Shown here: one piece after another, positions 18,860 to 35,186 of the stretch | Layout: each line of letters begins with the position of its first letter | Position numbering within the stretch: position 1 is the stretch's first letter | DNA from: Pseudomonadota bacterium | GTDB taxonomy: Bacteria > Pseudomonadota > Alphaproteobacteria > CACIAM-22H2 | Direction of reading: 5' to 3' | DNA length: 64,000 nucleotides | Assembly: GCA_041178225.1 (NCBI GenBank) | Contig: JBEGVV010000086.1 | Location: 472 to 64,471, forward strand | Translations under genes and position numbers: made by a program | The notes under the pieces: generated by a model | The model's database searches: none | What the model was told of the DNA's origin: nothing | What the model saw: the letters and a program-made list of their open reading frames with translations, nothing else

Positions 18860-19534
18860 ATGGATCGGATAGCCGTGGCCGGCTTCGCGACCTGCATCGA
18901 TCCTTGCTCCCAAGGCCGTGGCGCGCTGGCGCCACGCCTCGCCGCACGAGCGGCGAGGCCCGGGGCCAGGAGGAGCAACGACGTGCTGGTCCTTAGCGAG
19001 ATAAGCGTGTCGCGCGCGCGTTTGGCCCGCATCCTCGCCGCCTGCGCGCGCGCGCCGGCCGTGGTGGTCGATTTCTACCGGCCCGTCGGCCTTGTCCACC
19101 AGCGCGAGCACTACTTCCTCGACGTGGTCGACGCCGAGGGCAACATCCAGGGATCGGTCGCCGCCGGAGAGGGGTGGTCCGGCGCGATGGTCTGGACGAA
19201 CCTGCACGAGATCAGGCGGGCCCTGCGGCAGCGGCAGGACGCGTTCGTCTGCCTCCAGGTCGGGCACGAGACCCTCCTCGTCGATGGTCGCCCGGTATCC
19301 TACGCGGATCCGCTCAAGGGCCTCGACATCGCGCGTGCCGAGGGCGGCCCCCCGGTCGTGGAGTTCGCGGACGAGCCCGAACCGGTCCTCGTCCTTGGAA
19401 TCGACGACACCGCCGATGCAGCCGATGGGCACGCGACCCTGCGCCATGCGGCGATCGAGGTCCCGCCGGCCATCGCCGGCTTGCCGGTCGAGGGCGTGGC
19501 ATGGCTCGGCGGCGAGGGAAAGCCGGCATCCTGA
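18860..19534 (+). CDS. hypothetical protein (no recognisable domain); alternative GTG start at 18983 after GGAGGAGCAACGAC
   Basis: track ORF; several rare codons (ATA, CTT, TTA-type) in its 5' region. Confidence 0.4.
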   Translation: MDRIAVAGFATCIDPCSQGRGALAPRLAARAARPGARRSNDVLVLSEISVSRARLARILAACARAPAVVVDFYRPVGLVHQREHYFLDVVDAEGNIQGSVAAGEGWSGAMVWTNLHEIRRALRQRQDAFVCLQVGHETLLVDGRPVSYADPLKGLDIARAEGGPPVVEFADEPEPVLVLGIDDTADAADGHATLRHAAIEVPPAIAGLPVEGVAWLGGEGKPAS

Positions 19535-19733
19535 CATCCGGAACGTGGCCGGGGCGCTCCATCCGGAACGGATGAATCCCCGGCGCGATCGCGGCGAATC
19601 GACTCATCTTGGCGCTGCCGCGTGCATGCGATGCTGGGTCGGGCCTTCCGCCCCGTCCTGGCCGCTTGCTCGGGGACATGTTCCCCGGGGCGTCGCCCCG
19701 ACGAATTGATCTTCGCAGGGTGGGTGGACTGAC

Positions 19734-20384
19734 ATGCGCATCCCAATGATCGCGGCCATGCCGATCGCGCTTGCGATGGCGCTGGCCGGGTGCAGCATGC
19801 AGCAGGCTGCGCCCTTCGTCGTCGTCCTCCCGGTCGCTGTCGAGCTCGCGCTCGCCGAGGCGACCAAGGACGCGCGCGAGATCGGGCGCTTCGGGGCCTG
19901 GACAGCGGCGCAGGCAGGATATCCTGGTCGCCGCGCCTGCTTCGTCTCCGCGGCGCCTGCCTCGACGCTTCAGTTGCCGACGCGCATCGCCGATGTCCCG
20001 GCATCGCCGTCCGCCGCGCGCAGCGCCCCCGCCCAGCGCAGGAAGGAAGCCGTCGCTTTGGTGGTGTCGCAGCGCAGCGCCGGCCCGGTTCGCGACGAGG
20101 TCTCCTTTCGCGCCGGCTGGGATCTCGCCGCGGGGCGCGAGGTCGCGATCTCGGTCGATGGCCGCCAGGTCGCGACGCTCGCGCGACGCACCGCGCTGGA
20201 GCCGGACATAGCCCATGCGCGCGACGCGGCAGCAGGACCCGCGATCGTCGCGGCCCTGCGCGCGGGCAAGCGCCTCGAGGTCGTGAGCATCGGGCCGGCG
20301 AGCGCGACGAACAGGGACAGCTTCGACCTCGCCAGGTTCGGCGAGGCGCTCGACGCCGCGAACGCGGCCTGCGGCCTGCGCTAG
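19734..20384 (+). CDS. lipoprotein (lipobox LAGC), possibly invasion-associated-locus-B (IalB)-like
   Basis: MRIPMIAAMPIALAMALAGCS signal peptide plus lipobox; 216 aa; convergent with TPR/beta-barrel OMP gene. Confidence 0.55.
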   Translation: MRIPMIAAMPIALAMALAGCSMQQAAPFVVVLPVAVELALAEATKDAREIGRFGAWTAAQAGYPGRRACFVSAAPASTLQLPTRIADVPASPSAARSAPAQRRKEAVALVVSQRSAGPVRDEVSFRAGWDLAAGREVAISVDGRQVATLARRTALEPDIAHARDAAAGPAIVAALRAGKRLEVVSIGPASATNRDSFDLARFGEALDAANAACGLR

Positions 20385-20448
20385 CGCGTGGTCGCCCGGG
20401 GCTGGCCTCTCGCAAGGGCGTCGACCATGCGCCAGGCCGCTGGCGCGG

Positions 20449-21858
20449 TCAGAAGCGCTTCACCAGGAGCGTCTGCAGGCGGAGATTCGAGTAGTCGTAG
20501 TTCGGGATGTTCGACCGGGCCGCGAAGTGCTCGGCGGAGAAGGTCAGCGTGACGTCCTCGAGCGAGGCGGCCACTTCCTGGCCGGCCCAGCCGAACAGGT
20601 TGCCGAGCGGAAGCGTGTAGCCGGTCTTGAAGCGGCGGTTGTCGTCGCGCCGCGAGAAGGAAGCGATCGACGCGTCCGGCTCGTCGTAGCTGTCCGTGCC
20701 GATGGACGCGGATGTCGCGATGAACTGTCCGTCGCCCAGCAGCCAGAGATGGCTCAGCGATGCCTCGTGCCCGCCATAGGCGTTGTAGGATTCCTCGGCC
20801 GCCTTGCGAGTCAGGACGAGGCTGGCGCCGAGGCGATGCGAGGGCGCGAAGGACCAAGCCCCGCCGATCTCTAGATCGTAGCGGCCGCCGCTGCGCGTCG
20901 GCGCCGTCGCGGCCGACGACGTCGCCTGGAACGTCTGGGTCTGCGCCCATGCGGAGGCATGGATGTCCACGGTCCTCGATGGCGCCCAGTCGGCACGCAG
21001 CTTCGTGCCTGAGGAATGGAGATAGGGCTGGTAGTCCAGCCGGACCCGGGAATGGGTCAGCAGGGGCGAGACCGAAAGTCCATCGGCCAGCTTGAGCGAG
21101 GCCCCGCCCTCGAGGCTCAGGGCGCCGAGGTCCTGGGTGTCGATCTCGACCTGGTTCGCGACGTAGCCGACCGCGTTGAAGACGAGCTCGTGCTCGTCCT
21201 GGTGGCCGAGGTCGTGGCGTATCCCGATCGTGCCAAGCAGGAGCTGGCCGATGTCGCTCTTGCGGTGGGGTGTCGCCGCGAAGGGAAGGTCGCCGACGAA
21301 GTTCACCTTCTCGCGCGGGAACGCGTTGCGGTTGCCGTTGTACTCGAGGCCGGTCCCGAGCGAGTACGCCACACGGGTGGTCCGGCTGCGCTTCGCGATC
21401 TCCTCGAGGTATCGCTGCGCCTCGATCCGCGATTCGGGCGAGAGCTGGCTGGCATCCAGCGCCCGCAGCTCGCGCTCGGCCTCCTGGATGTTGTCCAGGC
21501 GGAAGAGCACGATCGCGTAGAGGAGGCGGATCTCAGCGGTGGCGGGCGCGAGCAGCATGATGCGCTCGAGCGTCGTCACCGCGCTCTTGAGGTCGCCCTG
21601 CGCGACGCGCTGCTGCACGAAGCGGATGTTGAGCGCCACGTCGTCGGGGCTGCGCAGCAGTTCCTCGAAGGTCACCGTCGGCCCTGCCGGCCTGGCACGC
21701 TGGCGCGACGACCCGAGCCCTTCGCCCTCGGCCTCGAGCTGCTGCTGGATGCGCTCCGGGGCGCGTTCGGGCTGGGAAGGCTGTGCCAACGCCACGGCCC
21801 CGTGGAGCAACAGAAGGAGCGCGATCGATGCCCCGAGCCTGCCGTTTGCGTGTTCCAC
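20449..21858 (-). CDS. outer-membrane protein: N-terminal TPR-like periplasmic domain + C-terminal beta-barrel (Slam/DUF560-like architecture)
   Basis: signal peptide; TPR-like helices aa 60-160; alternating amphipathic strands; C-terminal ...LLVKRF (terminal Phe typical of OMPs); GTG start. Confidence 0.6.
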   Translation of the reverse strand: MEHANGRLGASIALLLLLHGAVALAQPSQPERAPERIQQQLEAEGEGLGSSRQRARPAGPTVTFEELLRSPDDVALNIRFVQQRVAQGDLKSAVTTLERIMLLAPATAEIRLLYAIVLFRLDNIQEAERELRALDASQLSPESRIEAQRYLEEIAKRSRTTRVAYSLGTGLEYNGNRNAFPREKVNFVGDLPFAATPHRKSDIGQLLLGTIGIRHDLGHQDEHELVFNAVGYVANQVEIDTQDLGALSLEGGASLKLADGLSVSPLLTHSRVRLDYQPYLHSSGTKLRADWAPSRTVDIHASAWAQTQTFQATSSAATAPTRSGGRYDLEIGGAWSFAPSHRLGASLVLTRKAAEESYNAYGGHEASLSHLWLLGDGQFIATSASIGTDSYDEPDASIASFSRRDDNRRFKTGYTLPLGNLFGWAGQEVAASLEDVTLTFSAEHFAARSNIPNYDYSNLRLQTLLVKRF

Positions 21859-22067
21859 GATTCGATCGTCCGGGAAGGGAACGGGGCGCGACGCCCGTTC
21901 TGGAGCGAGCTCGCAGCATCGGGTTTCGCCACGCGGCGCGCCGCCGAACTTCGACCAATGCGGAGATATCTCGCCCCTTGCTGTAGCGCGACGCGTGCTG
22001 CTGTCGGAGCGTCCGGCCCGCCTCGGCCAGCGGGGATCCCGGAAGCCTTGGAAACAGGCGAAACCCG

Positions 22068-23705
22068 ATGTCCAGATCCGCAGCCGTCCTTGCCATCGCC
22101 CTCGCGTCCTGGGTGGGAGCCGCCGCAGCCCCTTCCGGCGCGCAGCAGCCCGGCGATGGCCGCGTCGGCACCGCGGCGGCGGTTCGCGGGGCCGTTCAGC
22201 TCGCGGCGCTCGGGCCCGCGCCGACCAGTCTCGCGCGGCAGGTCGGCACGGTGGTCACGAGCGGATCCCCGCTGTTCCTGGGCGACGCGATCGAATCCGG
22301 GCCCGGGGCAGGGCTGCAGGTCCTGCTTGCGGACGAAACCGTCTTCACGATCGGCCCCGACGCGCGTCTCACCATCGACGAGTTCGTCTACAGCCCTGCA
22401 GGCGGTGCCGGGCGCCTCACGGCGACCGTCGCGCGCGGCGCCTTCCGCATGATCAGCGGGAAGGTCGCCGCGGCGGGACCGGACGCGATGCGCGTCAGGA
22501 CGCCGGTGGCCACGATCGGCATCCGGGGCACGATGGTCGGCGGCGAGGTCGGCCAACGGGGCGAGACCTTCGTCGTCCTGCTCGGCCCGGGCCCGCGCGC
22601 GATGGCGGAAGGCCAGCGCGTCGGCCGCATCGCGGTCTTCGCCAACGCGGCGCCGCCGGGCCAGGCCGTGGAGATCACGCGCGCGGGATTCGGCACCACG
22701 GTCTCGGCGCCGTCGATCGCGCCGCCGCCACCCGCGCGCATCGACCAGGCGCGCATCCAGCAGCTTGGCGCATCGCTGCAGAGCCGCGGCGCACCGCCGC
22801 CATCTCCGGCCGCGCCGGCCGCACAGCAGGGACAGGGCGGCGCGCAGGCCGCCGCCCCGCAGCAGCAAGGCCAGGCCGCGCCGGCCCCTGGCTCCGAGCC
22901 GCCGGCTGCAAGTGCGGCAGCCGCCGCGGCGATCGAGCCCGGTGCACCGCCCCCGACACCACAGGCGGCGCCCGCGCCGATCGTCCCGCCGGTCGCCGCC
23001 TTCGCGCCGCCCATGCCGACAGATCTCGGCGCGATGGTCGTCGACCTCGGCTCCGCGGTCCGCCTGGCGGTGCAGCAGGCGAACGAGCAGCAGCTGGCTC
23101 CGGGCAGCACCACCACCACGGCGACGAACGCGGCATTCACCCTGCCGGAGATCGCCCGCCAGGCTCAGCTCAATGCGACGCTGCCGCAGAACGTGGTGCT
23201 GCCGCTCGCCATCCAGCTCGACTGGTCGAACATCCCCGACCTCGACCTCCACATGACCGCGCCCGACGGTGCCGGGGGCAGGGCGCATGTCTTCTTCGGC
23301 AATACCGGCAGCTACAACTCGGCGCCTTTCGTGAAGCTCGGCAACGACCGCGTCGCCAGCATAGGCGGGTCCGAGGTCATGGCGATAAACGGGCTGACGA
23401 CGACGAACCTCCCGGCCGACAACCTGTATCGCGCCACGGTCCATAACTTCGGCGACCAGTCCGCAAGCGGCACGACGCTATCGAGCCTCTCCAACGCGAC
23501 GGTCAAGGTCGTGACCGGCGGCACGCTCGACGTGTCCGGCAACACGGGCGACCGGATCTCCGGCGGCACCACGCGCGGCGTCTTCACCGTGCCGCAAGGC
23601 GGTGCCGGGAACGCGTGGGTCGTGCTGGAGATCAATCCCCTCACGCGGGTCGTGAAGCCCGTCGGCACGATCACGAACATGCCCAATCCCGCCTCCGCCC
23701 CATGA
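22068..23705 (+). CDS. secreted FecR-domain protein with Pro/Ala-rich linker and beta-rich C-terminal domain
   Basis: signal peptide MSRSAAVLAIALASWVGAAAA; FecR-like block GDAIESGPGAGLQVLLADETVFTIGPDARLTIDEF...ARGAFRM...GIRGT; low-complexity PAPQ linker; divergent from the OMP gene. Confidence 0.65.
   Translation: MSRSAAVLAIALASWVGAAAAPSGAQQPGDGRVGTAAAVRGAVQLAALGPAPTSLARQVGTVVTSGSPLFLGDAIESGPGAGLQVLLADETVFTIGPDARLTIDEFVYSPAGGAGRLTATVARGAFRMISGKVAAAGPDAMRVRTPVATIGIRGTMVGGEVGQRGETFVVLLGPGPRAMAEGQRVGRIAVFANAAPPGQAVEITRAGFGTTVSAPSIAPPPPARIDQARIQQLGASLQSRGAPPPSPAAPAAQQGQGGAQAAAPQQQGQAAPAPGSEPPAASAAAAAAIEPGAPPPTPQAAPAPIVPPVAAFAPPMPTDLGAMVVDLGSAVRLAVQQANEQQLAPGSTTTTATNAAFTLPEIARQAQLNATLPQNVVLPLAIQLDWSNIPDLDLHMTAPDGAGGRAHVFFGNTGSYNSAPFVKLGNDRVASIGGSEVMAINGLTTTNLPADNLYRATVHNFGDQSASGTTLSSLSNATVKVVTGGTLDVSGNTGDRISGGTTRGVFTVPQGGAGNAWVVLEINPLTRVVKPVGTITNMPNPASAP
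22710..23013 (+). repeat. Pro/Ala/Gln-rich low-complexity coding repeats inside FecR-domain gene
   Basis: APPPSPAAPAAQQGQGGAQAAAPQQQGQAAPAPG...; GC-rich near-tandem DNA repeats. Confidence 0.5.
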
Positions 23706-23744
23706 GGGGCGCTTTCCCGTCCGCCGCGGGCGGCTGAGCCTGCG

Positions 23745-24116
23745 ATGCGAAGCGATGGCCGCGGCGCCTCGATGCGCCCTCGCGTCTTCCGTCCCGGCGA
23801 GATCGTCTTCCTCGAGGGCATGCACGGCGAGGAAGCCTTCCTCCTGAAGGAGGGCGCGGTGGAGATCTTCCGTTCGTCCGGGTCGGGAGAGGTGGTCCTC
23901 GCCACGATCACGCCCGGGGACATCTTCGGGGAGATGGCGCTCGTCGACTCCCGGCCGCGTTCGGCGAGCGCGCGCTGCGTCGGCGTCGTCGTGGCGACCC
24001 CGATCCCGCGCCGGCTCCTCGAGCAGGAACTCGCGCGGAGCCCGATGATCGTGCGGGCCCTCGTCGAGCGCTACATCCGCATCATCCGCGACGCCAATCG
24101 CCGGCTGGGGGACTGA
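23745..24116 (+). CDS. stand-alone cyclic-nucleotide-binding (cNMP) domain protein
   Basis: canonical phosphate-binding cassette FGEMALVDSRPRSASARCV; 123 aa; 1 nt before CHASE2 cyclase start. Confidence 0.8.
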   Translation: MRSDGRGASMRPRVFRPGEIVFLEGMHGEEAFLLKEGAVEIFRSSGSGEVVLATITPGDIFGEMALVDSRPRSASARCVGVVVATPIPRRLLEQELARSPMIVRALVERYIRIIRDANRRLGD

Positions 24117-24117
24117 C

Positions 24118-26373
24118 GTGACCATTCGCAGCTTCGCCGCCGTCCTTCGCCGCGGCATATCGGTCATCGTGCCGAGCGTCCTGCTCGTCCTCGTCCTCGT
24201 CCTGCGCCAGGCGGACCCGGGCGACGTGCTCACCGATTTCCGCAATCGCGTCTTCGACCTCTACCAGCGCCTCGAGCCGCGTGCCCAGTCGGACGCGCCC
24301 GTGCGGATCGTCGACATCGACGACGAGACGCTGGCGCGGCTTGGCATCCAGTGGCCATGGCCGCGCACGATCCTCGCGCGCATGACGACCGCGCTCGCCG
24401 AGGCCGGCGCCGCGGCGATCGTCTTCGACGTCGTCTTCGCGGAACCCGATCGCACGTCGCCGGCAAGCGCCGCCAGGATCTGGAACCTGCCCGAGGACGA
24501 CGTCGAACTGCGCGCGAGGCTCGAGGCCATTGCCGACCACGATCGCGTCTTCGCCGAGGCGATCGCCGCGGCCGGCAACGTCGTGACCGGCTTCGCCCTG
24601 ACGCCCGACAGGACGGCCGCGCGACCCCTGCCGCGCGGTGGCTTCGCCGTCGCGGGAGACGACCCGCGGGAATTCCTGCGCGGGCGCTATGCCGGGGCGG
24701 TGACGACCCTGCCGGACCTCGAGCGGGCCGCGGCGGGCAACGGCTTCATGAACTTCGCCCCCGGGACGGATCTCGTGGTCAGGTCCGTCCCGTTGCTCCT
24801 CGCCTCGCAGGATGGCCGGCTCCATCCGAGCCTGGTCGCGGAGGCCTTGCGGGTCGCGCAGGGTGCCCGCACCTCGATCGTGAAGTCGTCCGGAGCGAGC
24901 GGCGAGACGGCCTTCGGCGCGCGCTCGGGCATCAACCAGGTCAAGATCGGCCAGTTCGTCGTCCCGACCGACGCGCAGGGCGGCATCGTCGCGCATTATG
25001 CGCGCCGCCGGGACGGGCTCTACGTCCCCGCCTGGAAGGTGCTCGACGGGGCCGCGGACGCGGCGGAATTCGATGGCGCCATCGTCCTGGTCGGCACGTC
25101 GGCCGCCGGGCTGCGCGACCTGCGCCCATCTCCGATCGATCCGCTCATGCCCGGCGTCGAGGCGCATGCGCAGGCGCTCGAGCAGATCCTGCTCGGGCAC
25201 TTCCTGTCGCGTCCGGACTGGGCGGATGGCGTGGAATGGCTGACCACGCTGGTCCTTGGCGGCGCGATGATCGCGCTCCTCGCGACGGTCGGCGCCCTCG
25301 CGTCCGCCCTCGTCGGCTTCGCGGCGGTCGGAGGCATCATCGTCGCATCCTGGTACTGCTACCGCGAGATATTGTGGCTCTTCGACCCGGTCTTCCCGGC
25401 CGCGGCGTCGCTCGCCATCTACCTGTCGGGCTCCCTCATCGGCTACCTGCGCACCGAGGCGGAGCGCAAGCAGGTGCGTGGCGCCTTCTCGCAGTACCTG
25501 TCGCCGGACCTCGTCGAGCGGCTGGCGCGCGATCCGTCGTTGCTGCGCCTGGGCGGCGAGACCCGGAACCTCACGCTGATGTTCTGCGACGTCCGCGGCT
25601 TCACGTCGATCTCGGAGCGGTTCAAGGCCGATCCCCAGCGGCTTACCCAGCTCATCAACCGGTTGCTCACGCCGATGACCGAGGTGGTCCTCGAGCGCCG
25701 GGGGACGATCGACAAGTACATGGGCGACTGCATCATGGCGTTCTGGAACGCGCCGCTCGACAACCCGGCGCACGCCGTCGATGCCTGCGCCTCGGCGCTC
25801 GCCATCCAGTCCTGCCTCGCCGACCTCAACGCGGAGCTCGCGCGCGAGGCGTTGGCCGCCGGCGAGAAGCACCAGGACCTTGCCGTCGCGATCGGGATCA
25901 ACACCGGCGACTGCGTCGTCGGCAACATGGGATCGCGGCAGCGCTTCGACTACTCGGCGCTGGGCGACACCGTGAACCTGGCGTCGAGGCTGGAAGGGCA
26001 GTCGCGCGCCTATGGCGTCGACATCGTCGTGGGTTCCTCGACCCGCTCCGCGGCCGGGGGGCTCGCGGCGATCGAGCTCGACCTCATCGTCGTCAAGGGC
26101 AAGAGCGAGCCCGAGAGGATCCACGCTCTCCTCGGCGGCGAGGACGAGGCGCGCACGCCGGCGTTTCGCGACTTCGCGGCGCTGCACGACAGGATGCTCG
26201 CGGCCTATCGCGGGCAGGCCTGGGACGAAGCGGTCGAGATCTCGGCGCGCTGCGCCGCCGCCCGGCCGACCCTGTCCGCGCTCTACGCGATGTACGAGAA
26301 GCGCATCGCCCAATACCGGGCCGAACCGCCTGGCAGCGACTGGGACGGCGTCTTCGTCGCCAGGAGCAAGTGA
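24118..26373 (+). CDS. CHASE2-sensor class-III adenylate cyclase (membrane, periplasmic CHASE2 + TMs + cyclase domain)
   Basis: N-terminal TM, ~330-aa CHASE2-like region, 3 TM, then LTLMFCDVRGFTSISE...IDKYMGDCIMAFWNAP...GINTGDCVVGNMG (metal Asp and substrate Lys suggest adenylate specificity). Confidence 0.85.
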   Translation: MTIRSFAAVLRRGISVIVPSVLLVLVLVLRQADPGDVLTDFRNRVFDLYQRLEPRAQSDAPVRIVDIDDETLARLGIQWPWPRTILARMTTALAEAGAAAIVFDVVFAEPDRTSPASAARIWNLPEDDVELRARLEAIADHDRVFAEAIAAAGNVVTGFALTPDRTAARPLPRGGFAVAGDDPREFLRGRYAGAVTTLPDLERAAAGNGFMNFAPGTDLVVRSVPLLLASQDGRLHPSLVAEALRVAQGARTSIVKSSGASGETAFGARSGINQVKIGQFVVPTDAQGGIVAHYARRRDGLYVPAWKVLDGAADAAEFDGAIVLVGTSAAGLRDLRPSPIDPLMPGVEAHAQALEQILLGHFLSRPDWADGVEWLTTLVLGGAMIALLATVGALASALVGFAAVGGIIVASWYCYREILWLFDPVFPAAASLAIYLSGSLIGYLRTEAERKQVRGAFSQYLSPDLVERLARDPSLLRLGGETRNLTLMFCDVRGFTSISERFKADPQRLTQLINRLLTPMTEVVLERRGTIDKYMGDCIMAFWNAPLDNPAHAVDACASALAIQSCLADLNAELAREALAAGEKHQDLAVAIGINTGDCVVGNMGSRQRFDYSALGDTVNLASRLEGQSRAYGVDIVVGSSTRSAAGGLAAIELDLIVVKGKSEPERIHALLGGEDEARTPAFRDFAALHDRMLAAYRGQAWDEAVEISARCAAARPTLSALYAMYEKRIAQYRAEPPGSDWDGVFVARSK

Positions 26374-26386
26374 GCGCGCTGCCCGT

Positions 26387-27655
26387 TCAGGCGTCGACCT
26401 CGACTTCCGAGCGAGGGAGGCCGACGCAGGCGAGGCACGAGCCGGGGGCGATGTCCGCGCCCGGCTTGCCTGCGTAGCCGACCTCGCCGCGCCGCACGGC
26501 GGTCGTGCACGAGCCGCAATTGCCGGCGCGGCAGCCCGAGTCCATGGCTATCCCCGCGGCCTCGGCCATCTCGAGGATGGTCGCCGCGCCGTTCCAGGCC
26601 ACGCGCTTGCCCGATCGCGCGAACACGACGGCGAGCTCGCCGGCCGGCGCGGGCGCGGTGGCGGCCGGCGGGGCCGCACCCTTCACCGAGGCGGGGCCGA
26701 AGGCCTCGTGGTGGATTCGCCCGGGCTCGACGCCCGCCGCGCCGAGGCCCTCCACCACCGACTTCATCATCGGCGGGGGGCCGCAGAGGTAGAAATGCGG
26801 CGACGCCATGTCGCCGACGACGCGCCGGATCAGGTCGACGCTGACGCGTTCGGCATGCTGGAAGCGCTCGCCGGGGGCCTCGCCCGGCTCGGGGTCGCTG
26901 TAGCAGACGTTCATGCTGACGTTGGGGTTGCGCGCGGCGACCGCCGCGAGGTGGTCCGCCATCGCGTGCTCGGCGCCGTTGCGCACGCCGTAGAAGAACC
27001 AGACCGCGCGCCGCGCGTCGGCGTCGACGATCGCGTTGAGCATGGACAGGACGGGCGTCAGGCCGACGCCGCCGCCGATCAGGACGACCGGCGTCGTGTC
27101 GGCGGGGTCCAGCCAGAACGCGCCCGACGGCGCGCGCACGTCGACGATGTCGCCGACCTCCAGGTCGTCGTGGAAGAAGCAGGAGGAGACGCCGGGCGGG
27201 ATCTCGGGCTTGCCGGGGGGCGAGCCGACGCGCTTGATGGTCACGCGGAAATACTCGGCGCGCGGGGCGTCCGACAGCGAATAGCAGCGCGTCACGGGCT
27301 TCGGCTGCCCCGGTATGTTCAGCTTGAAGGTCAGGTACTGGCCGGGATTGAAGCCCGGCAGCGGGCGGCGGTCGTGGGGCTCGAGGTAGAAGGACCGCGT
27401 GTCGCGTGCCTCGAGCACCTTGCGCGCGACGACGAACTTGCGGAACCCGTCCCAGGTGCGCTCCGCCTTCTCGCGCTCGCGCGCGCGACGCTCGGCGATC
27501 TCGGCCACGCGGGCGGAGAGCAGCGCCCGCTCGGCCTCCGCGCTGCGTCGCGCGGTCCGGGTTGCCTCAACCTCTCGCCAGCCGGCGACGGCAAGCCTGG
27601 CGCCAAGCCCGGCGAGGAGGAGCGATGCCGCGGCGGGCAGCAACGTGTCGAGCAT
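26387..27655 (-). CDS. membrane-anchored FNR-type oxidoreductase: TM anchor + FAD-binding + NAD(P)-binding + C-terminal plant-type [2Fe-2S] ferredoxin
   Basis: N-terminal TM; RCYSLS FAD motif; VLIGGGVGLTPVLSML NAD(P) motif; C-terminal CRAGNCGSCTTAV...C; GGAAGG RBS; 18 nt after OMP gene. Confidence 0.8.
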   Translation of the reverse strand: MLDTLLPAAASLLLAGLGARLAVAGWREVEATRTARRSAEAERALLSARVAEIAERRAREREKAERTWDGFRKFVVARKVLEARDTRSFYLEPHDRRPLPGFNPGQYLTFKLNIPGQPKPVTRCYSLSDAPRAEYFRVTIKRVGSPPGKPEIPPGVSSCFFHDDLEVGDIVDVRAPSGAFWLDPADTTPVVLIGGGVGLTPVLSMLNAIVDADARRAVWFFYGVRNGAEHAMADHLAAVAARNPNVSMNVCYSDPEPGEAPGERFQHAERVSVDLIRRVVGDMASPHFYLCGPPPMMKSVVEGLGAAGVEPGRIHHEAFGPASVKGAAPPAATAPAPAGELAVVFARSGKRVAWNGAATILEMAEAAGIAMDSGCRAGNCGSCTTAVRRGEVGYAGKPGADIAPGSCLACVGLPRSEVEVDA

Positions 27656-27673
27656 GCGCGGGCCTTCCGTTTC

Positions 27674-29191
27674 TCAGAACTTGATACGCAGCTCGGACCG
27701 GATCCCGAGCAGGTCGTTGTCGCGGTCGCGGCGCGCGGCTATGGCATCGGCGCGGAAGATGAGCGCGTTGGTGAGCGGAAGCTGGTACCTGATACCGGCG
27801 CCATATTGCGGGCCGCGGGCCGCGCGGCCAGCCTCGAAGGCGCCTTCGCGCACGTCGAGCCCGGCGATCTCGACGACGATCTGCTGGTCGAGCTCGAAGA
27901 GGTACTGGATCCCGAGGGCGCCGCCATAGGTGTTGTGCGCGCTGTCGTCGAGCTTCGGGAAGTTCGTCAATCCGTCTGTCTCGAACAGGATGCCCGTGTT
28001 CTTCAGGATCCCGCCGGCGCCGGGGTCGCGCGCCAGGGACTGCGGCCGGTCGAAGCCCGCGAACAGGTTGAAGTACGGCACGAGCGTCAGCGGCTTGTGG
28101 CTGATCAGGGAGTTTTCCAGAAGCACCGCGAAGCCGTCCGCGCTCTGCTGGCGATTGCGCTCGCGGTCCTGGCCGAAGGCGCCGACGACGCGGACGCTGT
28201 TCGACAGCCAGCCGCCATAGCGGCGCGTGAAGGAGATCGCCGCGCTGTCGTAGCCCTGCTCCGCGAGCTCGCGGCGCCCGTCCACGCGACCGATCCCGAA
28301 CTCCCAGTGCCCTTCGTTGGCGTCCACGAACAGGGCGGCGCCCATGATCCGGGCGTCCTTGTCCGCGAAGTCGCCCAGGGCGTTGCGCAGCGCCGGGCTC
28401 GAGACCTTGTTGAACCCGGCGAACACGGAGACGTCCATGTTCGATATGCCCAGCGTCCGGCTGTTGCGGCCAGCCTGCCCGAATGCGACGCCGGTGATCG
28501 CATCGTCCATCCATACGCCATTGTGGAAGACCAGCGGCATGAGGCCTGCCGCGAAGGGAATGTCGACGGTGCTGTACGTGCCGAACGCCCCGGACGCGAT
28601 GTTGCCGAGGTCGCCCTCGAAGAAGAAGGCGTCCACGTTGCCGTCCAGGGTCGCCTCGCCTCGGCGCCGGTCGTCCCCGGCGAACTCGTAGCGCGTGAAC
28701 TTTCCATTGCGGTCGAAGGGGCGGAACAGCGCGTGGAAGCGCTCGGTCGACGTGATCGCGAGGTCCGCCTCGAGGTTGAGGCGCGTCGCGACCTGCCCGA
28801 CCTCCTTGCTGCCCGTGTCGTTGAACGCCATCGCGGCGCGCCAGTCGCCGTACACGACCAGCGACGGGCTGGCGGGGTTCTTCGCCCCGAGGAAGTGATA
28901 GGAGGGAGGGAGCGGGCCCTCGCGGTAGAGCGGCCGCCCGATCTCGATGAGCGGCCGCGGGGTCTTCACCTCGCGCTTGCCGCCATAGATGTCGACCTGG
29001 CGTTCCGCGTCATAGGCGCCCGTGCCGTAGGACGGATCGGGCTTGAAGACGCCGGGGTCGTGCGGCACGCGCTCGACGCCCGGAGACATCGCGGGTTCCT
29101 CCTCGGCCGCGCGCGCGGGCGCGGCCGGGGCCGAGGCGAGCGCGGCGGCGACGAGGAGGGGAATGAAGCCGCTGCGAAGGTCGATGGTCAT
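27674..29191 (-). CDS. outer-membrane beta-barrel protein (porin-like, ~505 aa) within cytochrome operon
   Basis: signal peptide MTIDLRSGFIPLLVAAALASAPAAPARA; amphipathic beta-strand pattern; C-terminal ...SELRIKF; AAGGA RBS. Confidence 0.7.
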   Translation of the reverse strand: MTIDLRSGFIPLLVAAALASAPAAPARAAEEEPAMSPGVERVPHDPGVFKPDPSYGTGAYDAERQVDIYGGKREVKTPRPLIEIGRPLYREGPLPPSYHFLGAKNPASPSLVVYGDWRAAMAFNDTGSKEVGQVATRLNLEADLAITSTERFHALFRPFDRNGKFTRYEFAGDDRRRGEATLDGNVDAFFFEGDLGNIASGAFGTYSTVDIPFAAGLMPLVFHNGVWMDDAITGVAFGQAGRNSRTLGISNMDVSVFAGFNKVSSPALRNALGDFADKDARIMGAALFVDANEGHWEFGIGRVDGRRELAEQGYDSAAISFTRRYGGWLSNSVRVVGAFGQDRERNRQQSADGFAVLLENSLISHKPLTLVPYFNLFAGFDRPQSLARDPGAGGILKNTGILFETDGLTNFPKLDDSAHNTYGGALGIQYLFELDQQIVVEIAGLDVREGAFEAGRAARGPQYGAGIRYQLPLTNALIFRADAIAARRDRDNDLLGIRSELRIKF

Positions 29192-29210
29192 CTCTGGCGT
29201 CCTTGGCGGC

Positions 29211-30992
29211 TCAGCGCACTTCGAAGGCGACGCTGTAGGGATGGATGTCGAGCATCCACTCGTTCATGGCCTGCTCCATCTCCCTCGTCGCCTTGACGAA
29301 CTTCATGAAGTAGATGGGCTCGGCCCGGCTGCGCATGCGCGCGGCGAGCCTGTACTTGCCGGGCTGCGAGAGCACCTGGGCGGGCACGGTGTAGTTCGCC
29401 ACGCGCGTGCCCAGGGGCGGGATGCTGCGCGCCTCCATCCTGATGCCAGGCGGATGGTTGAGTACCGTGGTCGGCACCGACGCGGGCCGGATGAATGGCC
29501 GCTGGTCGACGTCGAAGTTGATCGGCAGGTACATCTCGCGGTCCGTGCCCTTGACGTTCTGCGTCAGGAACTTGGTCTGCAGGTTGACCAGCTGGACGTC
29601 GCGCGGGACGCGCCCGGCGAGCACGTCGAGCGAGTGGATGTCGGCCATGTCGCCGTTCGAATCGACATAGCCGCTTTCCCACACGGTCCGGCCGTCGGGG
29701 GCCACGAGGGCGACGTTCAGCCAGATCTCCGGCTGTGCGCCCAGCGACCCGGACGGCAGGTTGTGGCCGCGATTGGTGTTGGTGATGCGATAGGAGAAGG
29801 AGAGCCCCTGGCCCGCCTTCGGCGCCGAGGCGAAGAACGGCCCGTCGAGCCTCGAGCCATTCTCCATCACCTTGCGGCGGAGCTCGCGCTTCTCCTCGAG
29901 GCGCACGAGGTTCTCCTCGACGATCTCGCGCGCTTCCTCGCGGTCGATGCGATCGCCCCAGGGCTCCGGGAAGCTCTGCTTGATCTCGCCGGACTCGACC
30001 TTGTCCTCGAACTCCGGCTTGCCCCAGCCGGCGCGGTGGTCGAACTTCAGCCAGTCGCGGATGTCGAACTTCGATGCCTTGGTGTTGATCGGGAAGATCC
30101 CGGGATGCGCGATCGGGTAGCCCGGGCCGTAGAAGGCGTGGTTGCTGTGGCGTCGGTTGGGGTTCACGGGCTTGCCGTTGACCACCGCGCTCGGTCCCGT
30201 GTCGTAGCCGTTGGCGACGCCGGGGGTCTTGCCCATGTGGCATTCCTGGCAGGTGGTGCCATCGGACATCGACGGGGAGGCACGGTACTGGTCCCAGACC
30301 ACCTCGAGCTTGATCCCCGGGTGGACGGCGACCTGGTGGCAGGAGACGCAGAACTCGGACTTCGAGATCTGGTCGAGCTTGAAGACGCCGAGATGGATCT
30401 TGTTGCCGCGCTCGCCCGGCCCGGTGGCGACGCGATAGCTGTCCTTCTCGGCGATCACCTCGCCAAGCTTCCCGCCTTCGCCCGAGCCCGTGACCGGCAC
30501 GTGGATGTCGCCCGGCACGACGCTGCGTTCGCCATTGGTCTTCGCGTACTGCTCCGAGATGCGGTGGCACGTGATGCAGGTGACGCCCTCGCGCGCGACC
30601 TCGCTGCGCTCCCATAGCGGACGCCAGCGCTCCTCGCCGCGCTGCGTGCCCACCTGCTGGTGGCAGCGCACGCAGAACCCGCCGATGGTGCCCGAGGACA
30701 GGTCGTTGATCGCCTGCTCGAACTTGTGGAACATCGGCGAGATCGACGCGTAGGCGTGGTTGGACGACGCCCACTCCGCGTAGATCTGGCCGTGGCAGGA
30801 CGCGCATTGCGCGGCGGTCGGATAGGACGTCTCCGCGAGCAGGTCGGCGTGCGGGTCCTTCTCGGTCGCCGTCGCCGAGGTCTCGGGCAGGGGCGCGAGC
30901 GCGCTCCCCACGACGACGCAGAACGCCAGCAGGCCGGCGGTCAGGAGCGAGAGGCCGATCCGCGATCGGCGCCGGAGCCCGTCATCTTGCAT
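29211..30992 (-). CDS. pentaheme c-type cytochrome (5 CxxCH in N-terminal 250 aa + 340-aa haem-free C-terminal domain), secreted
   Basis: CASCH, CVRCH, CITCH, CVSCH, CQECH; signal peptide; start overlaps decaheme gene end by 11 nt. Confidence 0.85.
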   Translation of the reverse strand: MQDDGLRRRSRIGLSLLTAGLLAFCVVVGSALAPLPETSATATEKDPHADLLAETSYPTAAQCASCHGQIYAEWASSNHAYASISPMFHKFEQAINDLSSGTIGGFCVRCHQQVGTQRGEERWRPLWERSEVAREGVTCITCHRISEQYAKTNGERSVVPGDIHVPVTGSGEGGKLGEVIAEKDSYRVATGPGERGNKIHLGVFKLDQISKSEFCVSCHQVAVHPGIKLEVVWDQYRASPSMSDGTTCQECHMGKTPGVANGYDTGPSAVVNGKPVNPNRRHSNHAFYGPGYPIAHPGIFPINTKASKFDIRDWLKFDHRAGWGKPEFEDKVESGEIKQSFPEPWGDRIDREEAREIVEENLVRLEEKRELRRKVMENGSRLDGPFFASAPKAGQGLSFSYRITNTNRGHNLPSGSLGAQPEIWLNVALVAPDGRTVWESGYVDSNGDMADIHSLDVLAGRVPRDVQLVNLQTKFLTQNVKGTDREMYLPINFDVDQRPFIRPASVPTTVLNHPPGIRMEARSIPPLGTRVANYTVPAQVLSQPGKYRLAARMRSRAEPIYFMKFVKATREMEQAMNEWMLDIHPYSVAFEVR

Positions 30993-32520
30993 CTTTCGTC
31001 ATCCGTGGCTTGAGCGCGTGGTTCTGGTGATAGGCGTGGCAGGTCAGGCAGCCATCCGGCGCCTTGCCCTGCTGGTGGCATGACGTGCAGGCCTCGATGC
31101 CGACCGGGACGAAGCCGGACGACGCGGGCTTGTCGCCTTGCAGGTGGCAGGACGCACAGGAACCGGCGCCGGGCATCGCGGCGACATGCGGGCGATGGTC
31201 GAAGCGGTGCAGTTGCCGCTGCGGCGCCGGCGATCGATTCCACGCGATGGTCCGTGGCCCGTCCGCGGGACCGGAGATGGCGTGGCACTTCAGGCACTGG
31301 CCAGGCCCGTCGGCGCCGAGGATCTCCGCGCGCACGGCCTCGAGGCGCTCCGCGTCGTCGTCGTCGGCCGGGCGCGGGCTGGCGGCGATCGCGTCGAGCC
31401 AGGCGCGGACGACCGGGTCGCCATGCGCAGGCCTCGCGTAGCGAAGCTCGAGCCCTTCGGCGCGCCATCCCGGCTGCGTGGCGCCACCGGGGGGCTCGTG
31501 CTCGCGGTTGCTCGCCCAGGCGCAGGCCGCCATCCGCGCGGTCTCGCCGGAGAGGCCGCGCAGGAGCCTCGCGCCGTCCCCGCCGAGGCGGCCGGCCGCG
31601 AGCGCCGCGATCGGCTCCGCGCCTTTGGCGACCATCGCGTCCGCGAGCTTGCGCAGCGGATCGGCATAGGCGGCCTGGTCGTCCGCCGCGGCACCGAGCA
31701 GGAACGCGAGCAGCGCGTTTGCAGGGTCGAGCGACACGGGCGAGGGGTCGGGCGCGTCGCCCGGGGGGCCACATGCCTCCGGCGCCTGCGGCGCTGGCTC
31801 GAGCTCGGGCCAGCGCATCACGACGAGGTCGCGGCGCGCGATGCCCTGGTCGTGGCATCCCGCGCAGGCCGCCTCGTAGCCGAGGGTCGCGACCGCACCG
31901 CCCTGCTTCTGCGGCTGGTGGCAGCCCAGGCATTGGCCGGCGGGGACGAACTCGGCGTTGCGCGGGTCGGCGAAGTGCTTCGAGATGTGCGACGCGTGGT
32001 CGAAGCTCGCCTTGCGGTCGCTAGCGGACGGATACCAGGGCGAGAAGGGCGGGTGGCCCGCCGCGAAGCCATGGAACTGGCGGGCGTGGCAGGACTGGCA
32101 CTGCGCGTCGGGCATGGCGCTGGCCGGCAGGCTCGCGCCGCGATGCTCGGCGTGGCACGCCACGCAGCTGGTCTGCGGCAGGTCCGCCCGCTTCTCGAAG
32201 ACGGCGTTGTGCGCGAGTGACTCGCGCCCGTCGAATCCATGGCAGGTGGTGCACGCGCCGTCGATGGCGTGCGGTCCGCCGGGCCGGAGCGCGGCGAGCG
32301 CCGCCGAGATCCATGCCGTCGCGCCGCGGCCATGCGCGGCATGGCAGGACGAGCAGCCTTCCTCGCCGAGGAAGGCTGCGTGCGACGGGGACAGGGGGCC
32401 AGCGTCGAGCGAGGAGGGAAGCCGCGCGTCGCGCGCGAAGCCGCCGGCGAGGATCACGACGAGCGCGAGGACGAGTGCCGCCGCAGCGAGCGCGATCCGG
32501 CCCCGGAGTTGCGCGTGCAT
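30982..32520 (-). CDS. decaheme c-type cytochrome (6 + 4 haems separated by ~185-aa haem-free insert), N-terminal signal/anchor
   Basis: Met at aa 341 of track ORF 30982..33540 followed by TM (IALAAAALVLALVVILAGG); CSSCH, CTTCH, CVACH, CQSCH, CLGCH, CAGCH ... CLKCH, CASCH, CTSCH, CLTCH; 512 aa. Confidence 0.8.
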   Translation of the reverse strand: MHAQLRGRIALAAAALVLALVVILAGGFARDARLPSSLDAGPLSPSHAAFLGEEGCSSCHAAHGRGATAWISAALAALRPGGPHAIDGACTTCHGFDGRESLAHNAVFEKRADLPQTSCVACHAEHRGASLPASAMPDAQCQSCHARQFHGFAAGHPPFSPWYPSASDRKASFDHASHISKHFADPRNAEFVPAGQCLGCHQPQKQGGAVATLGYEAACAGCHDQGIARRDLVVMRWPELEPAPQAPEACGPPGDAPDPSPVSLDPANALLAFLLGAAADDQAAYADPLRKLADAMVAKGAEPIAALAAGRLGGDGARLLRGLSGETARMAACAWASNREHEPPGGATQPGWRAEGLELRYARPAHGDPVVRAWLDAIAASPRPADDDDAERLEAVRAEILGADGPGQCLKCHAISGPADGPRTIAWNRSPAPQRQLHRFDHRPHVAAMPGAGSCASCHLQGDKPASSGFVPVGIEACTSCHQQGKAPDGCLTCHAYHQNHALKPRMTKDAR

Positions 32521-32681
32521 GCGGCGAGGGGCGCAGGGCGCATCGCCATGCGGGCATGTCCCGTCGGCCCGCGGCCCTCGTTCGCATGGGCGCCCCCACG
32601 CCACGGCGCGCCCGCAACGCCAGCCGAGGGGCGGCCGCTCGTAGCGGCTGCGGTCGTGGCGGAACTGGTCGCGCGAGCCGG

Positions 32682-33497
32682 TCATCCTGCGTACACGTGG
32701 ACGATGAGGGTGTGCCATGCCGCCATCACGAGGAAGGCGGTCGCCGCGGGCACGTGCACGAAGGTCCATGCGCGCAGCAGCGTCTGGAGCGCGTATTGCG
32801 CGTCCACGGCGCGCTTGTGCCGACAGATCTCGGCCAGCGCGTCGAGGTGCGGCCGCTCGTCGGCGGCGAGGAGCCTTTCGACCGCGGCGAGCCTCTGCCT
32901 TTCCCACGCCTCGGCGCCATGGCCACCAAGGACATGGCTGAGCGCGAAGCGCGGCCGCTCGAAATACCAGGCAAGGGTCTGCGCGTAGTAGGAACCCAGC
33001 GTCTCGTGGCCGGCCGCCCCGGCGGCCTCGACCAGCGCGTTCTCGGCCGCGGCGCGGAGCCTCGCCACCTCGCCGGGGATGCGCTCGTAGATCAGTTCCG
33101 GCCCGCTTCGCGCGAGGCGCGCGGGCAGGATCGCCTGCAGCACGTGCCCGGCGATCCCGGAGGCGACGACCGCGAGGAAGAGCACCGCGAGCGCGCGGTC
33201 GGCCGCGCCCGCCGGCCATGCGGTCCCGACATGGATGGCGTAGGCGCCGATCGCCGCGACGCCGACGATGACATGCACCGAGAGCCAGGCCGAGGCCCGG
33301 CCGAGGGGAAGCATGGGCAGGCGCCTGCGCACGCCGTAGATGGCGAGGGCTGCGACCATCGCCGCGAGGATCCAGCCCGTGGCGAAGTCGGGGTCGATGG
33401 TCGATGCGCGCCGCGTCGCGCGCCACGCCCCGAGCGCCGCGATCCCCGCCGCGGCGAGGATCCAGAGGCCAGCCGCGCGCCTCGACATCGCCCTCAT
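32682..33497 (-). CDS. integral membrane protein, 5 TM with conserved intramembrane His (possible di-haem cytochrome-b-type quinol-interacting anchor)
   Basis: 271 aa from MRAMSRRAAG; His in TM3 (SVHVIVGVAAIGAYAIHV), TM4 (GIAGHVL), TM5 (WHTLIVHV); ATGA overlap with upstream FeS gene; GGGGAG RBS. Confidence 0.6.
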   Translation of the reverse strand: MRAMSRRAAGLWILAAAGIAALGAWRATRRASTIDPDFATGWILAAMVAALAIYGVRRRLPMLPLGRASAWLSVHVIVGVAAIGAYAIHVGTAWPAGAADRALAVLFLAVVASGIAGHVLQAILPARLARSGPELIYERIPGEVARLRAAAENALVEAAGAAGHETLGSYYAQTLAWYFERPRFALSHVLGGHGAEAWERQRLAAVERLLAADERPHLDALAEICRHKRAVDAQYALQTLLRAWTFVHVPAATAFLVMAAWHTLIVHVYAG

Positions 33498-35182: not shown

Positions 35183-35186
35183 CGCG

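Follow-up and report, generated by a model that had tools for sequence, protein, structure and literature searches.

Four genes in the 64,000-nucleotide stretch of DNA analyzed here (the window) form one module, encoding a TPR-barrel outer-membrane protein, a FecR-fold protein, a stand-alone cNMP-binding protein and a CHASE2 adenylate cyclase. We consider it probable that this module carries out trans-envelope cAMP signaling as a split counterpart of the NsrA-CyaK system of Sinorhizobium meliloti, a nitrogen-fixing symbiont. Since the split arrangement is found across several phyla, it yields a general rule that can be tested: FecR-fold couplers, and not small molecules, may be what switches CHASE2 cyclases.

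Organization of the locus

The module and its flanking lipoprotein gene comprise the following features:

19734-20384, + strand: IalB-type lipoprotein (Pfam IalB, 6.6e-7; L-A-G-C lipobox)
20449-21858, - strand: TPR and beta-barrel outer-membrane protein, 469 aa (Pfam TPR_19, 2.4e-7; weak DUF2860)
21859-22067, no strand: divergent intergenic region of 209 bp between the barrel and FecR genes (sequence read directly)
22068-23705, + strand: secreted FecR-fold protein, 545 aa (Pfam FecR PF04773, 1.2e-7)
23745-24116, + strand: stand-alone cNMP-binding protein, 123 aa (Pfam cNMP_binding, 6e-21)
24118-26373, + strand: CHASE2 class III adenylate cyclase, 751 aa (CHASE2, 2.4e-57; Guanylate_cyc, 5.9e-20)

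The five reading frames are coding as judged by a third-codon-position G+C of 0.86-0.92, and the same genes (216, 469/458, 545/555, 123 and 751 aa) were called independently on four metagenome contigs from the same organism. Together with the Pfam matches, these data bear out all five genes and domain assignments of the first-pass annotation, which was also right about the 1-nt gap between the cNMP and cyclase genes and about the divergence of the barrel gene from the FecR gene across the 209 bp. Its claim that the cyclase gene ends close to the stop of a convergent FAD/NAD/2Fe-2S reductase gene stands as well, the distance being 13 nt as opposed to the 14 reported. Promoters presumably lie within the divergent region, which may have a regulatory role; no sigma-70 consensus site was found in positions 21859-22067, and a promoter and terminator scan of 19500-27000 returned no matches above the shuffled expectation. 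No Crp/Clr-like TGT-N10-ACA site was found in the window. Its 64 kb encode no Crp-type regulator (cNMP plus HTH), although another part of the genome could contain one, and no phosphodiesterase gene was found in the 64 kb.

The linkage of barrel, FecR and CHASE2 genes is conserved across phyla

A search for relatives of the barrel protein yielded 91 homologues. All 32 well-flanked loci encoding such homologues contain FecR genes and 28 contain a CHASE2 cyclase gene, the corresponding counts for all barrel loci being 71 and 58 of 82. The FecR genes, present in one to four copies, lie directly downstream of the barrel gene and on the same strand in 29 of the 32 well-flanked loci, and most loci co-transcribe the two, whereas the barrel gene of the window is divergent. 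These loci belong to Alphaproteobacteria, Myxococcota, Elusimicrobiota, Omnitrophota and one spirochaete MAG, and their gene orders vary. Thus, the TPR-barrel/FecR/CHASE2 neighborhood that the first-pass annotation had read as a unit is conserved in at least four phyla. Because this conservation extends across loci, the arrangement is more than chance, and the linked barrel, FecR and CHASE2 genes constitute a conserved functional unit. Viewed from the cyclase side, the association is less tight: the 20 well-flanked metagenome loci that encode a close relative of the CHASE2 cyclase include only 8 with a FecR gene of the window type and only 4 with the barrel. Some of the loci examined also include a phosphodiesterase gene, of either the MBL-fold or the GAF-HD variety.

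The lipoprotein does not share in this conservation. A homologue of the IalB protein occurs in only 1 of 83 barrel loci, that of a close relative, and no such family emerged from neighbor clustering; we therefore rejected it both as a member of the module and as a Slam cargo. The relay from outer membrane to periplasm to inner membrane that had been proposed for this locus has an experimental precedent in NsrA, described below, but loses its lipoprotein component.

Domain architecture of the envelope proteins

The cyclase is predicted to consist of a first transmembrane helix (residues ~12-30), a periplasmic CHASE2 domain (~31-370), three further transmembrane helices (~372-444), a class III catalytic domain (~480-665) and a helical tail. 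CHASE2 (PF05226) is matched over residues 22-382 with a score of 194.9 bits (cut-off 26.3), the catalytic domain matches PF00211, and the hydrophobic segments (6-34, 371-415 and 418-436) fit the order transmembrane helix, periplasmic domain, transmembrane helices and cytoplasmic output. From textbook class III motifs located by eye, we take D490 and D536 to be the metal ligands, K532 and D611 the adenine pair, and N620 and R624 the transition-state pair. The phosphate-binding cassette of the 123-aa cNMP protein (FGEMALVDSRPRSASA) is intact, and as judged from sequence the module proteins thus appear to retain their catalytic and cAMP-binding residues. The CHASE2 domain of the window cyclase shares 42-51% identity with its counterparts in trios from other phyla and 28% with that of CyaK. 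We know of no established ligand for CHASE2, a common bacterial sensor domain, and to our knowledge S. meliloti provides the only worked example, which points to an outer-membrane protein partner.

The FecR-fold protein comprises a Sec-type signal peptide, a FecR/PupR-like beta domain (~30-240), a disordered linker of ~130 aa rich in Pro, Ala and Gln (~245-370) and a beta-rich C-terminal module (~375-545). Its single hydrophobic segment is N-terminal and signal-peptide-like, the FecR domain beginning at about residue 30. The FecR-like region, whose match to the FecR model was in question, scores 32.5 bits, above the cut-off of 24, and its fold also matches the PupR signaling domain: the AlphaFold model of the N-domain (pLDDT ~90, the C-terminal domain being of low confidence) superimposes on 6ovk_R in Foldseek with an E value of 1.7e-4 and an rmsd of 3.6 A over 160 columns. 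Within the FecR domain, Gly154-Thr155 is invariant in an alignment of 30 sequences.

The barrel protein has a signal peptide, about three periplasmic TPR repeats (~64-158), a 14-strand beta-barrel (161-468) and a terminal Phe, the AlphaFold model (pLDDT 83.8) placing helices at 64-158 followed by 14 long strands at 161-468.

NsrA-CyaK is the closest known system

In S. meliloti, NsrA is required for signal perception by the CHASE2 cyclases CyaK and CyaD1/D2; the external signal for NsrA-CyaK is a protein, uL2, and the outer-membrane partner is needed both for its perception and for cAMP production (PMC7529298, PMC13001267). NsrA has 1190 aa, with a FecR domain (66-160), TPRs (378-587) and a C-terminal barrel. 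The nsrA gene overlaps the start of cyaK. A CHASE2 class III cyclase thus stands beside FecR, TPR and outer-membrane barrel modules in both cases, all three modules being present in the window, and the FecR domains are related (family HMM against the NsrA FecR domain, E 2.3e-8). This makes NsrA-CyaK the closest known system and the window its split counterpart: the modules fused in NsrA are divided in the window between the 545-aa FecR protein and the 469-aa TPR-barrel protein, encoded on opposite strands. The two systems also differ in their barrels, since that of NsrA is larger and weakly TonB-receptor-like whereas that of the window is Slam/DUF560-like with 14 strands. When NsrA was compared with the window barrel protein by BLASTP, only a TPR stretch aligned (E 0.046) and no part of the barrel did. 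Because the barrels have no detectable sequence similarity, the parallel may be convergent. Finally, the output of the S. meliloti system is the Crp-like regulator Clr, in contrast to the stand-alone cNMP protein of the window and possibly also a cNMP-FeS subunit.

A further relative is the four-gene cluster of Campylobacterota, for which horizontal spread has been suggested, encoding a CHASE2 adenylate cyclase, a phosphodiesterase, a FecR-domain protein and a TPR protein (PMC9239204). It shows the same set of partner domains around the CHASE2 cyclase, and its phosphodiesterase has parallels in the loci examined here; that description is bioinformatic, covers one phylum and gives no mechanism, and the window differs in lacking the phosphodiesterase and in having the stand-alone cNMP protein.

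From this comparison and the domain architectures, we infer the physical contacts, the direction of signal flow and the nature of the signal as follows. The 14-strand barrel with its periplasmic TPR repeats would sense or pass on a surface or envelope cue, and the secreted FecR-fold protein would link it to the inner membrane. FecR/PupR anti-sigma factors use the same fold to hold the periplasmic signaling domain of an outer-membrane transducer, and a long disordered linker is what might be expected of a periplasm-spanning coupler. The FecR-fold protein would then act on the inner-membrane cyclase by way of the periplasmic CHASE2 domain, and the cytoplasmic class III domain of the enzyme would produce cAMP. 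The putative local reader of this cAMP is the 123-aa cNMP protein, probably translationally coupled to the cyclase, and the cNMP-FeS subunit of the neighboring multiheme cytochrome complex may be a further one.

Alternative explanations for the conserved linkage

Although the window barrel itself has only a weak Pfam match to DUF2860 (23.4 bits) and does not reach SlipAM, among 21 members of its family SlipAM (PF04575) is matched by 6 (best 4.3e-9) and TPR_Slam by 11, and the protein is probably a remote relative within the Slam/DUF560 superfamily. Like Slam proteins of the type 11 system, it combines periplasmic TPRs with a 14-strand barrel, and in its family the partner genes lie directly downstream. 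The barrel could accordingly be a Slam-like secretion pore for which the FecR proteins are surface-exported cargo, the cyclase regulating or merely accompanying export. The usual order of a barrel gene followed by one to four tandem FecR paralogues resembles Slam plus cargo, and the FecR proteins are bipartite, a disordered linker joining their N-domain to a C-terminal beta domain, as is type 11 cargo, which carries a C-terminal targeting barrel (bioRxiv 10.1101/2020.01.20.912956). We nevertheless judge this explanation unlikely. The conservation is the reverse of that expected of type 11 cargo, for it is the N-terminal FecR domain that is nearly invariant across the family and the C-terminal domain that varies by lineage. 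The common C-domain gave no Pfam match at E<=5, no PDB sequence match by profile and, in a profile comparison, no resemblance to the fHbp/TbpB barrel (hhalign probability 0.3%, with an fHbp sequence that Pfam confirmed as FHBP_C/TbpB_B_D), and a profile search of a protein database returned only 13 short unannotated matches; none of these searches supported the FecR proteins as type 11 cargo. The C-domain of the window protein gave no family matches; its type occurs in only 2 of 83 loci and ends many unrelated proteins, one of which, when its neighborhood was examined, had no such barrel nearby. The conserved partners here are instead a FecR-fold protein and a cyclase, with no TbpB-type cargo barrel in the sequence and profile searches and no TonB-dependent receptor in the neighborhood. 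In the literature searched, DUF560 never appeared together with CHASE2 or FecR in one paper, and signaling from the envelope to a cyclase would give this uncharacterized DUF560 branch a likely role.

Alternatively, the FecR protein and the CHASE2 cyclase could form a periplasmic co-sensor pair, with the barrel serving a separate function, such as polymer export of the PgaA, PelB, BcsC or AlgE kind, and co-located for co-regulation. The best PDB matches of the barrel model in Foldseek include the TPR-linked polysaccharide porins PelBC, AlgE and BcsC along with generic porins, an NCBIfam model gave a weak match to the TPR region of PgaA, and FecR-CHASE2 pairs do exist without this type of barrel, as in Ensifer PDNC004, in several metagenome loci and in S. 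meliloti, where smc02177 adjoins cyaD1 (PMC5498481). We regard this explanation as improbable. The TM-scores of the porin matches are low (0.3-0.4) and the barrel has 14 strands, not 16-18. All-against-all clustering of the neighbors at 82 loci revealed no conserved family beyond the trio, and thus no shared synthase, glycosyltransferase or polymer-modifying gene. In the well-flanked loci the barrel gene always has a FecR gene as a neighbor, a tighter association than co-regulation alone would need.

It is highly improbable that the genes are functionally unrelated and adjacent by accident: in one related lineage (metagenome sample 3300059473) the closest barrel and FecR homologues, 50% and 51% identical to those of the window, are on separate contigs with no CHASE2 gene near, but linkage across phyla in varied gene orders contradicts this explanation.

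Classical Fec-type cell-surface signaling, in which an anti-sigma factor controls an ECF sigma factor, would account for the FecR match, the PupR-like fold and the conserved Gly-Thr but is contradicted by the architecture and can hardly be maintained, as the protein begins with a signal peptide and has neither a cytoplasmic anti-sigma domain nor a membrane anchor, and the Pfam-annotated genes in the flanking 10 kb to each side include no ECF sigma factor and no TonB-dependent transducer. What the module shares with FecA-FecR-FecI and PupB-PupR is a FecR/PupR periplasmic fold, here presumably at the interface with an outer-membrane protein, its own output probably being a second messenger and not a sigma factor. 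E. coli FecR self-cleaves at Gly181-Thr182 (PMC12036975), with which G154-T155 of the window protein lines up by eye in an ungapped alignment and in a non-significant HMM alignment; the match is not robust in BLOSUM local alignment.

cNMP proteins as candidate cAMP receivers and the neighboring multiheme cytochrome operon

Returning to the trans-envelope signaling module, the 64 kb contain only two cNMP-binding open reading frames, the 123-aa protein and a cNMP-FeS protein. Small cNMP proteins adjoin related cyclases elsewhere, one of them 36% identical to the 123-aa protein. The cNMP-FeS protein belongs to a convergent operon that may be a regulated target, its features being assigned from Pfam and gene calls:

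26387-36143, - strand: convergent multiheme cytochrome operon, possible regulated target
35187-36143, - strand: cytochrome c, first in transcription order
33494-35182, - strand: cNMP-FeS protein, candidate local cAMP receiver (cNMP_binding, 2.6e-20, in two stretches; Fer4 families)
after the cNMP-FeS gene and before the multiheme cytochromes, - strand: 271-aa open reading frame
within 30982-33540 and at 29211-30992, - strand: multiheme cytochromes
27674-29191, - strand: 505-aa protein with no family match
26387-27655, - strand: membrane-anchored FAD/NAD/2Fe-2S reductase, last gene

That a second cNMP receiver is encoded among the multiheme cytochrome genes, as the first-pass annotation had it, proved correct: the 33494-35182 product carries cNMP_binding and a 4Fe-4S dicluster region, with DmsB/HybA/NrfC-like NCBIfam matches that fall below their cut-offs. 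This protein may be supplied with cAMP by the window cyclase. A link between the trio and the cytochrome operon is not proven and has some support. In a second lineage, whose cyclase is 53% identical to that of the window, homologues of the last four operon genes lie directly upstream of the barrel-FecR-CHASE2 trio in another gene order, and at a further locus the gene of a third related cyclase comes directly after one for a multiheme cytochrome; the operon is absent from 80 genome loci.

A broader proposition, which we put forward as tentative and rather doubtful, is that a Slam/type 11 barrel branch has become the outer-membrane end of a widespread trans-envelope second-messenger pathway, that FecR-fold proteins are general periplasmic activators of CHASE2 receptors, and that in this lineage cAMP binds the cNMP domains of the FeS subunit and so acts directly on the multiheme cytochrome complex. 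If true, electron transport, whether respiratory or of the extracellular-electron-transfer type, would come under post-translational cAMP control in answer to a surface cue. Related cyclases elsewhere adjoin genes for a range of cNMP effectors, among them Crp-type regulators and NDH-2-cNMP, SulP-STAS-cNMP, MscS-cNMP and glutaminase-cNMP proteins, which suggests that redox and transport proteins, including the FeS subunit of the multiheme cytochrome complex, may use their fused cNMP domains to read cAMP produced at the envelope.

Gene content and domain architecture of the cluster

Since the window is ~72% G+C, spurious open reading frames are plentiful. The five genes and domain calls of the first-pass annotation were confirmed by third-position G+C, which picks out the proposed frames, by Pfam, and by four independent metagenome contigs of the same organism on which the same five genes are called:

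19734-20384, IalB lipobox protein (Pfam)
20449-21858, - strand, TPR-barrel protein (Pfam TPR_19 and a weak barrel match)
22068-23705, + strand, FecR protein (Pfam FecR, 32.5 bits against a cut-off of 24)
23745-24116, 123-residue protein (Pfam cNMP_binding)
24118-26373, + strand, CHASE2 cyclase (Pfam CHASE2 and Guanylate_cyc)

The proposed FecR domain thus scores above the model's cut-off, and the 1-nt gap before the cyclase gene and the divergent orientation of the barrel gene are as first described. The host is an uncultured alphaproteobacterium whose nearest genome is a lake metagenome-assembled genome (MAG) with a barrel protein 87% identical to that of the window. The cyclase has one transmembrane helix, a ~340-residue periplasmic domain (residues 31-370), three more transmembrane helices and a class III catalytic domain, the standard layout for CHASE2 receptors, and inspection of the sequence showed adenylate-type residues at all six canonical catalytic positions. 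The barrel protein was modelled with confidence (pLDDT 83.8) and has approximately three TPR repeats (residues 64-158) and, after them, a 14-strand barrel whose last residue is Phe.

The short convergent gap between the cyclase gene and the cytochrome operon was also borne out, with 13 nt (26374-26386) separating the stop codons of the cyclase and reductase genes. No terminator-like hairpin was detected in this gap, and the transcripts of the two genes probably each run into the opposing gene.

The barrel, FecR and cyclase genes are linked across phyla

To survey the cluster, a profile of 21 barrel homologues was searched against one genome per species; 155 relatives were found, 80 loci were kept, and all of their open reading frames were scored with HMMs built from the window proteins. 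FecR-domain genes were present in 71 of 82 non-redundant barrel loci and a CHASE2 cyclase in 58. When the survey was restricted to loci with 5 kb or more upstream and 8 kb or more downstream, all 32 had FecR genes and 28 had the cyclase; in 29, one to four tandem FecR genes lie directly downstream of the barrel gene on the same strand. The expected conservation of the gene neighborhood therefore holds for these three genes, in loci from Alphaproteobacteria, Myxococcota, Elusimicrobiota, Omnitrophota and a spirochaete MAG, and the same trio is found in a Pfam-annotated alphaproteobacterial MAG and an Elusimicrobia MAG. The CHASE2 domains of trios in other phyla are 42-51% identical to that of the window, which is consistent with the cluster having spread as one unit. 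The association is weaker when the cyclase is taken as the starting point: among 20 well-flanked metagenome loci with closely related CHASE2 cyclases, a FecR gene of this type was present in only eight and the barrel in only four. Homologues of the barrel and FecR genes from one metagenome sample lay on separate, unlinked contigs. All-against-all clustering of the neighboring open reading frames revealed no further conserved family in more than 40% of loci. The IalB lipoprotein, originally counted as part of the module, was rejected as a member, having a homologue in a single barrel locus.

A cyclase-free variant, composed of MBL-fold, barrel, FecR and GAF-HD (HD_5) genes, occurs in Marivibrio halodurans (L049, 8681-14910) and one alphaproteobacterial MAG (L041, 8825-14594), an arrangement in which the barrel-FecR pair appears to be connected to a phosphodiesterase-type output. 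M. halodurans is a cultured organism carrying this pair. In the lineage nearest to that of the window after its own (L010, 8030-13872, and the contig with gene list P0007), a divergent CYTH-CHAD gene adjoins the barrel gene; two FecR genes follow in L010 and none in the other contig, and there is no CHASE2 cyclase within 10 kb in either.

The cluster resembles a split NsrA-CyaK system

Perception of a plant or ribosomal uL2 protein signal by three CHASE2 cyclases of S. meliloti (CyaD1, CyaD2 and CyaK) depends on the outer-membrane protein NsrA, and the cAMP that these cyclases produce signals via Clr, a Crp-like regulator (PMC7529298, PMC13001267). At the nsrA-cyaK locus, which we took from pSymB, the nsrA gene overlaps the start of cyaK and encodes an 1190-residue protein annotated as "FecR domain-containing protein". 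Pfam assigns to it a FecR domain (66-160), a TPR array (378-587) and a weak C-terminal barrel match; thus, NsrA combines in one polypeptide the three partner modules that the window divides between two proteins. Between the two systems, the FecR domains are related, whereas relatedness of the barrels is not detectable. In addition, SMc02177, adjoining cyaD1, bears a FecR domain (PMC5498481), and a Campylobacterota survey described the clustering of genes for a CHASE2 cyclase, a phosphodiesterase, a FecR-domain protein and a TPR protein (PMC9239204). Given these precedents, the window cluster is a split form of an already known arrangement and not a new kind.

Cross-phylum linkage and the NsrA precedent both support the outer- to inner-membrane relay proposed in the first-pass annotation. 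On balance we favor an NsrA-like trans-envelope relay that would be built from separate parts (barrel, FecR protein and CHASE2 cyclase); its signal, its cAMP output and the contacts between its parts are all inferred.

Among cultured organisms, the closest cyclase (53% identical) is encoded on a plasmid of Ensifer sp. PDNC004 (L089, 1771-11869). Divergent from it are genes for a short TPR protein (104 residues) and a short FecR protein (220 residues), and an MBL-fold gene overlaps its 3' end. Next to these genes is an NHLP-type bacteriocin export system that has a cNMP-binding protein of its own.

The FecR protein and the role of the barrel

The FecR protein consists of a signal peptide, a beta domain (residues 30-240), a disordered Pro/Ala/Gln-rich linker of ~130 residues and a beta-rich C-terminal domain of poor model quality. 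The beta domain was modelled with confidence, and its Foldseek matches include the PupR cell-surface signalling domain and a Bacteroidales anti-sigma factor. This N-domain is strongly conserved in a 30-sequence alignment, in which R-G-T at residues 153-155 is invariant (30/30); the motif is also present in NsrA. In E. coli FecR, self-cleavage takes place between Gly181 and Thr182 (PMC12036975). The family Gly-Thr (Gly154-Thr155, encoded at 22527-22532) falls opposite this site when the sequences are compared by eye without gaps, and again at the only aligned node of an HMM alignment that is not significant, making it a reasonable idea that soluble FecR-fold proteins of this family may, like E. 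coli FecR, cleave themselves.

The C-terminal domain (23190-23705, + strand, residues ~375-545; motifs DLDLHMTxP, GSEV and NFGDQS) has no Pfam family and is widespread, with 534 cluster representatives at E<=1e-3. It is nearly always at the extreme C-terminus of proteins of ~110 to 3375 residues whose N-terminal regions are unrelated and mostly without annotation, suggesting a sorting or anchoring domain.

Alternatively, the barrel could be a secretion system with the FecR proteins as its cargo. Slam proteins of type 11 secretion have the same architecture of TPR repeats and 14 strands, and 6 of 21 barrel family members match SlipAM (best 4.3e-9) and 11 of 21 match TPR_Slam. The type 11 study (bioRxiv 10.1101/2020.01.20.912956) describes the clusters beyond the animal-associated one as uncharacterised and as coming mainly from water and soil. 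Against the cargo reading, the C-terminal domain common to the FecR family matches nothing in Pfam or among PDB sequences and does not resemble the fHbp/TbpB barrel in a profile comparison, and conservation is the inverse of that of type 11 cargo, the N-domain being invariant and the C-domain exchangeable. We therefore consider the cargo explanation unlikely.

Candidate cyclic nucleotide receivers and the cytochrome operon

The window contains only two cNMP-binding open reading frames. The 123-residue protein consists solely of a cNMP-binding domain, in which the phosphate-binding cassette is intact, and similar small proteins lie near related cyclases, supporting its proposed role as a receiver. 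The second, in the cytochrome operon as claimed, is a cNMP-4Fe-4S protein by Pfam. Proteins with cNMP domains adjoin the trio or related cyclases in many loci, and include Crp-type regulators, redox fusions (type II NADH dehydrogenase-cNMP and pyridine-nucleotide disulphide oxidoreductase-cNMP), MscS-cNMP, glutaminase-cNMP, cNMP-FHA, and a SulP-STAS-cNMP protein accompanied by a small stand-alone cNMP protein 36% identical to that of the window. Local read-out by varied effectors is thus a recurring theme. A convergent pair encoding a ~750-residue cNMP-domain protein (SulP-STAS-cNMP by Pfam in L104) and a ~140-residue stand-alone cNMP protein recurs downstream of related CHASE2 cyclases in four loci (L104, L110, L113 and L123), pointing to small cNMP proteins as a regular accessory of this cyclase clade.

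The cNMP-4Fe-4S protein (33494-35182, - strand) is a DmsB/NrfC/HybA-type FeS subunit with N-terminal cNMP-binding domains in two Pfam stretches. The surrounding operon (26387-36143) encodes MtrC/MtrF-like multihaem cytochromes, a 271-residue open reading frame, a 505-residue protein that matches no family and a membrane-anchored FAD/NAD/2Fe-2S reductase, apparently a candidate respiratory-type complex gated by cyclic nucleotide.

None of the 80 genome loci carries the cytochrome operon. It recurs, as homologues of its last four genes, beside the trio in one metagenome lineage (L093 and L172; contigs WLWI01000164.1 and WLWD01000057.1). There the genes are all on one strand, in this order:

multihaem cytochrome
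multihaem cytochrome
509-residue unknown protein
FAD/NAD/2Fe-2S reductase
glutamate dehydrogenase
barrel
FecR
CHASE2 cyclase
GAF-HD

Identity to the window is 59-74% for the 593-residue cytochrome (29211-30992), 54% for the unknown protein, 51% for the reductase, 33% for the barrel, 44% for the FecR N-domain and 53% for the cyclase. The proximity of operon and trio has outlived a rearrangement from convergent to co-directional. In a further locus (L138, 2-13130), a multihaem cytochrome gene lies directly 5' of a CHASE2 cyclase 49% identical to that of the window. These two findings raise a cytochrome link beyond mere adjacency to a plausible hypothesis, one that we rate as less likely than not; the two or three lineages behind it may be related by descent. 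The L138 cyclase is followed by an MBL-fold gene whose product resembles Apyc1, an enzyme that degrades cyclic nucleotides. Genes for cytochrome c', a multicopper oxidase and a cupredoxin lie close by, giving the locus a denitrification-like or redox setting.
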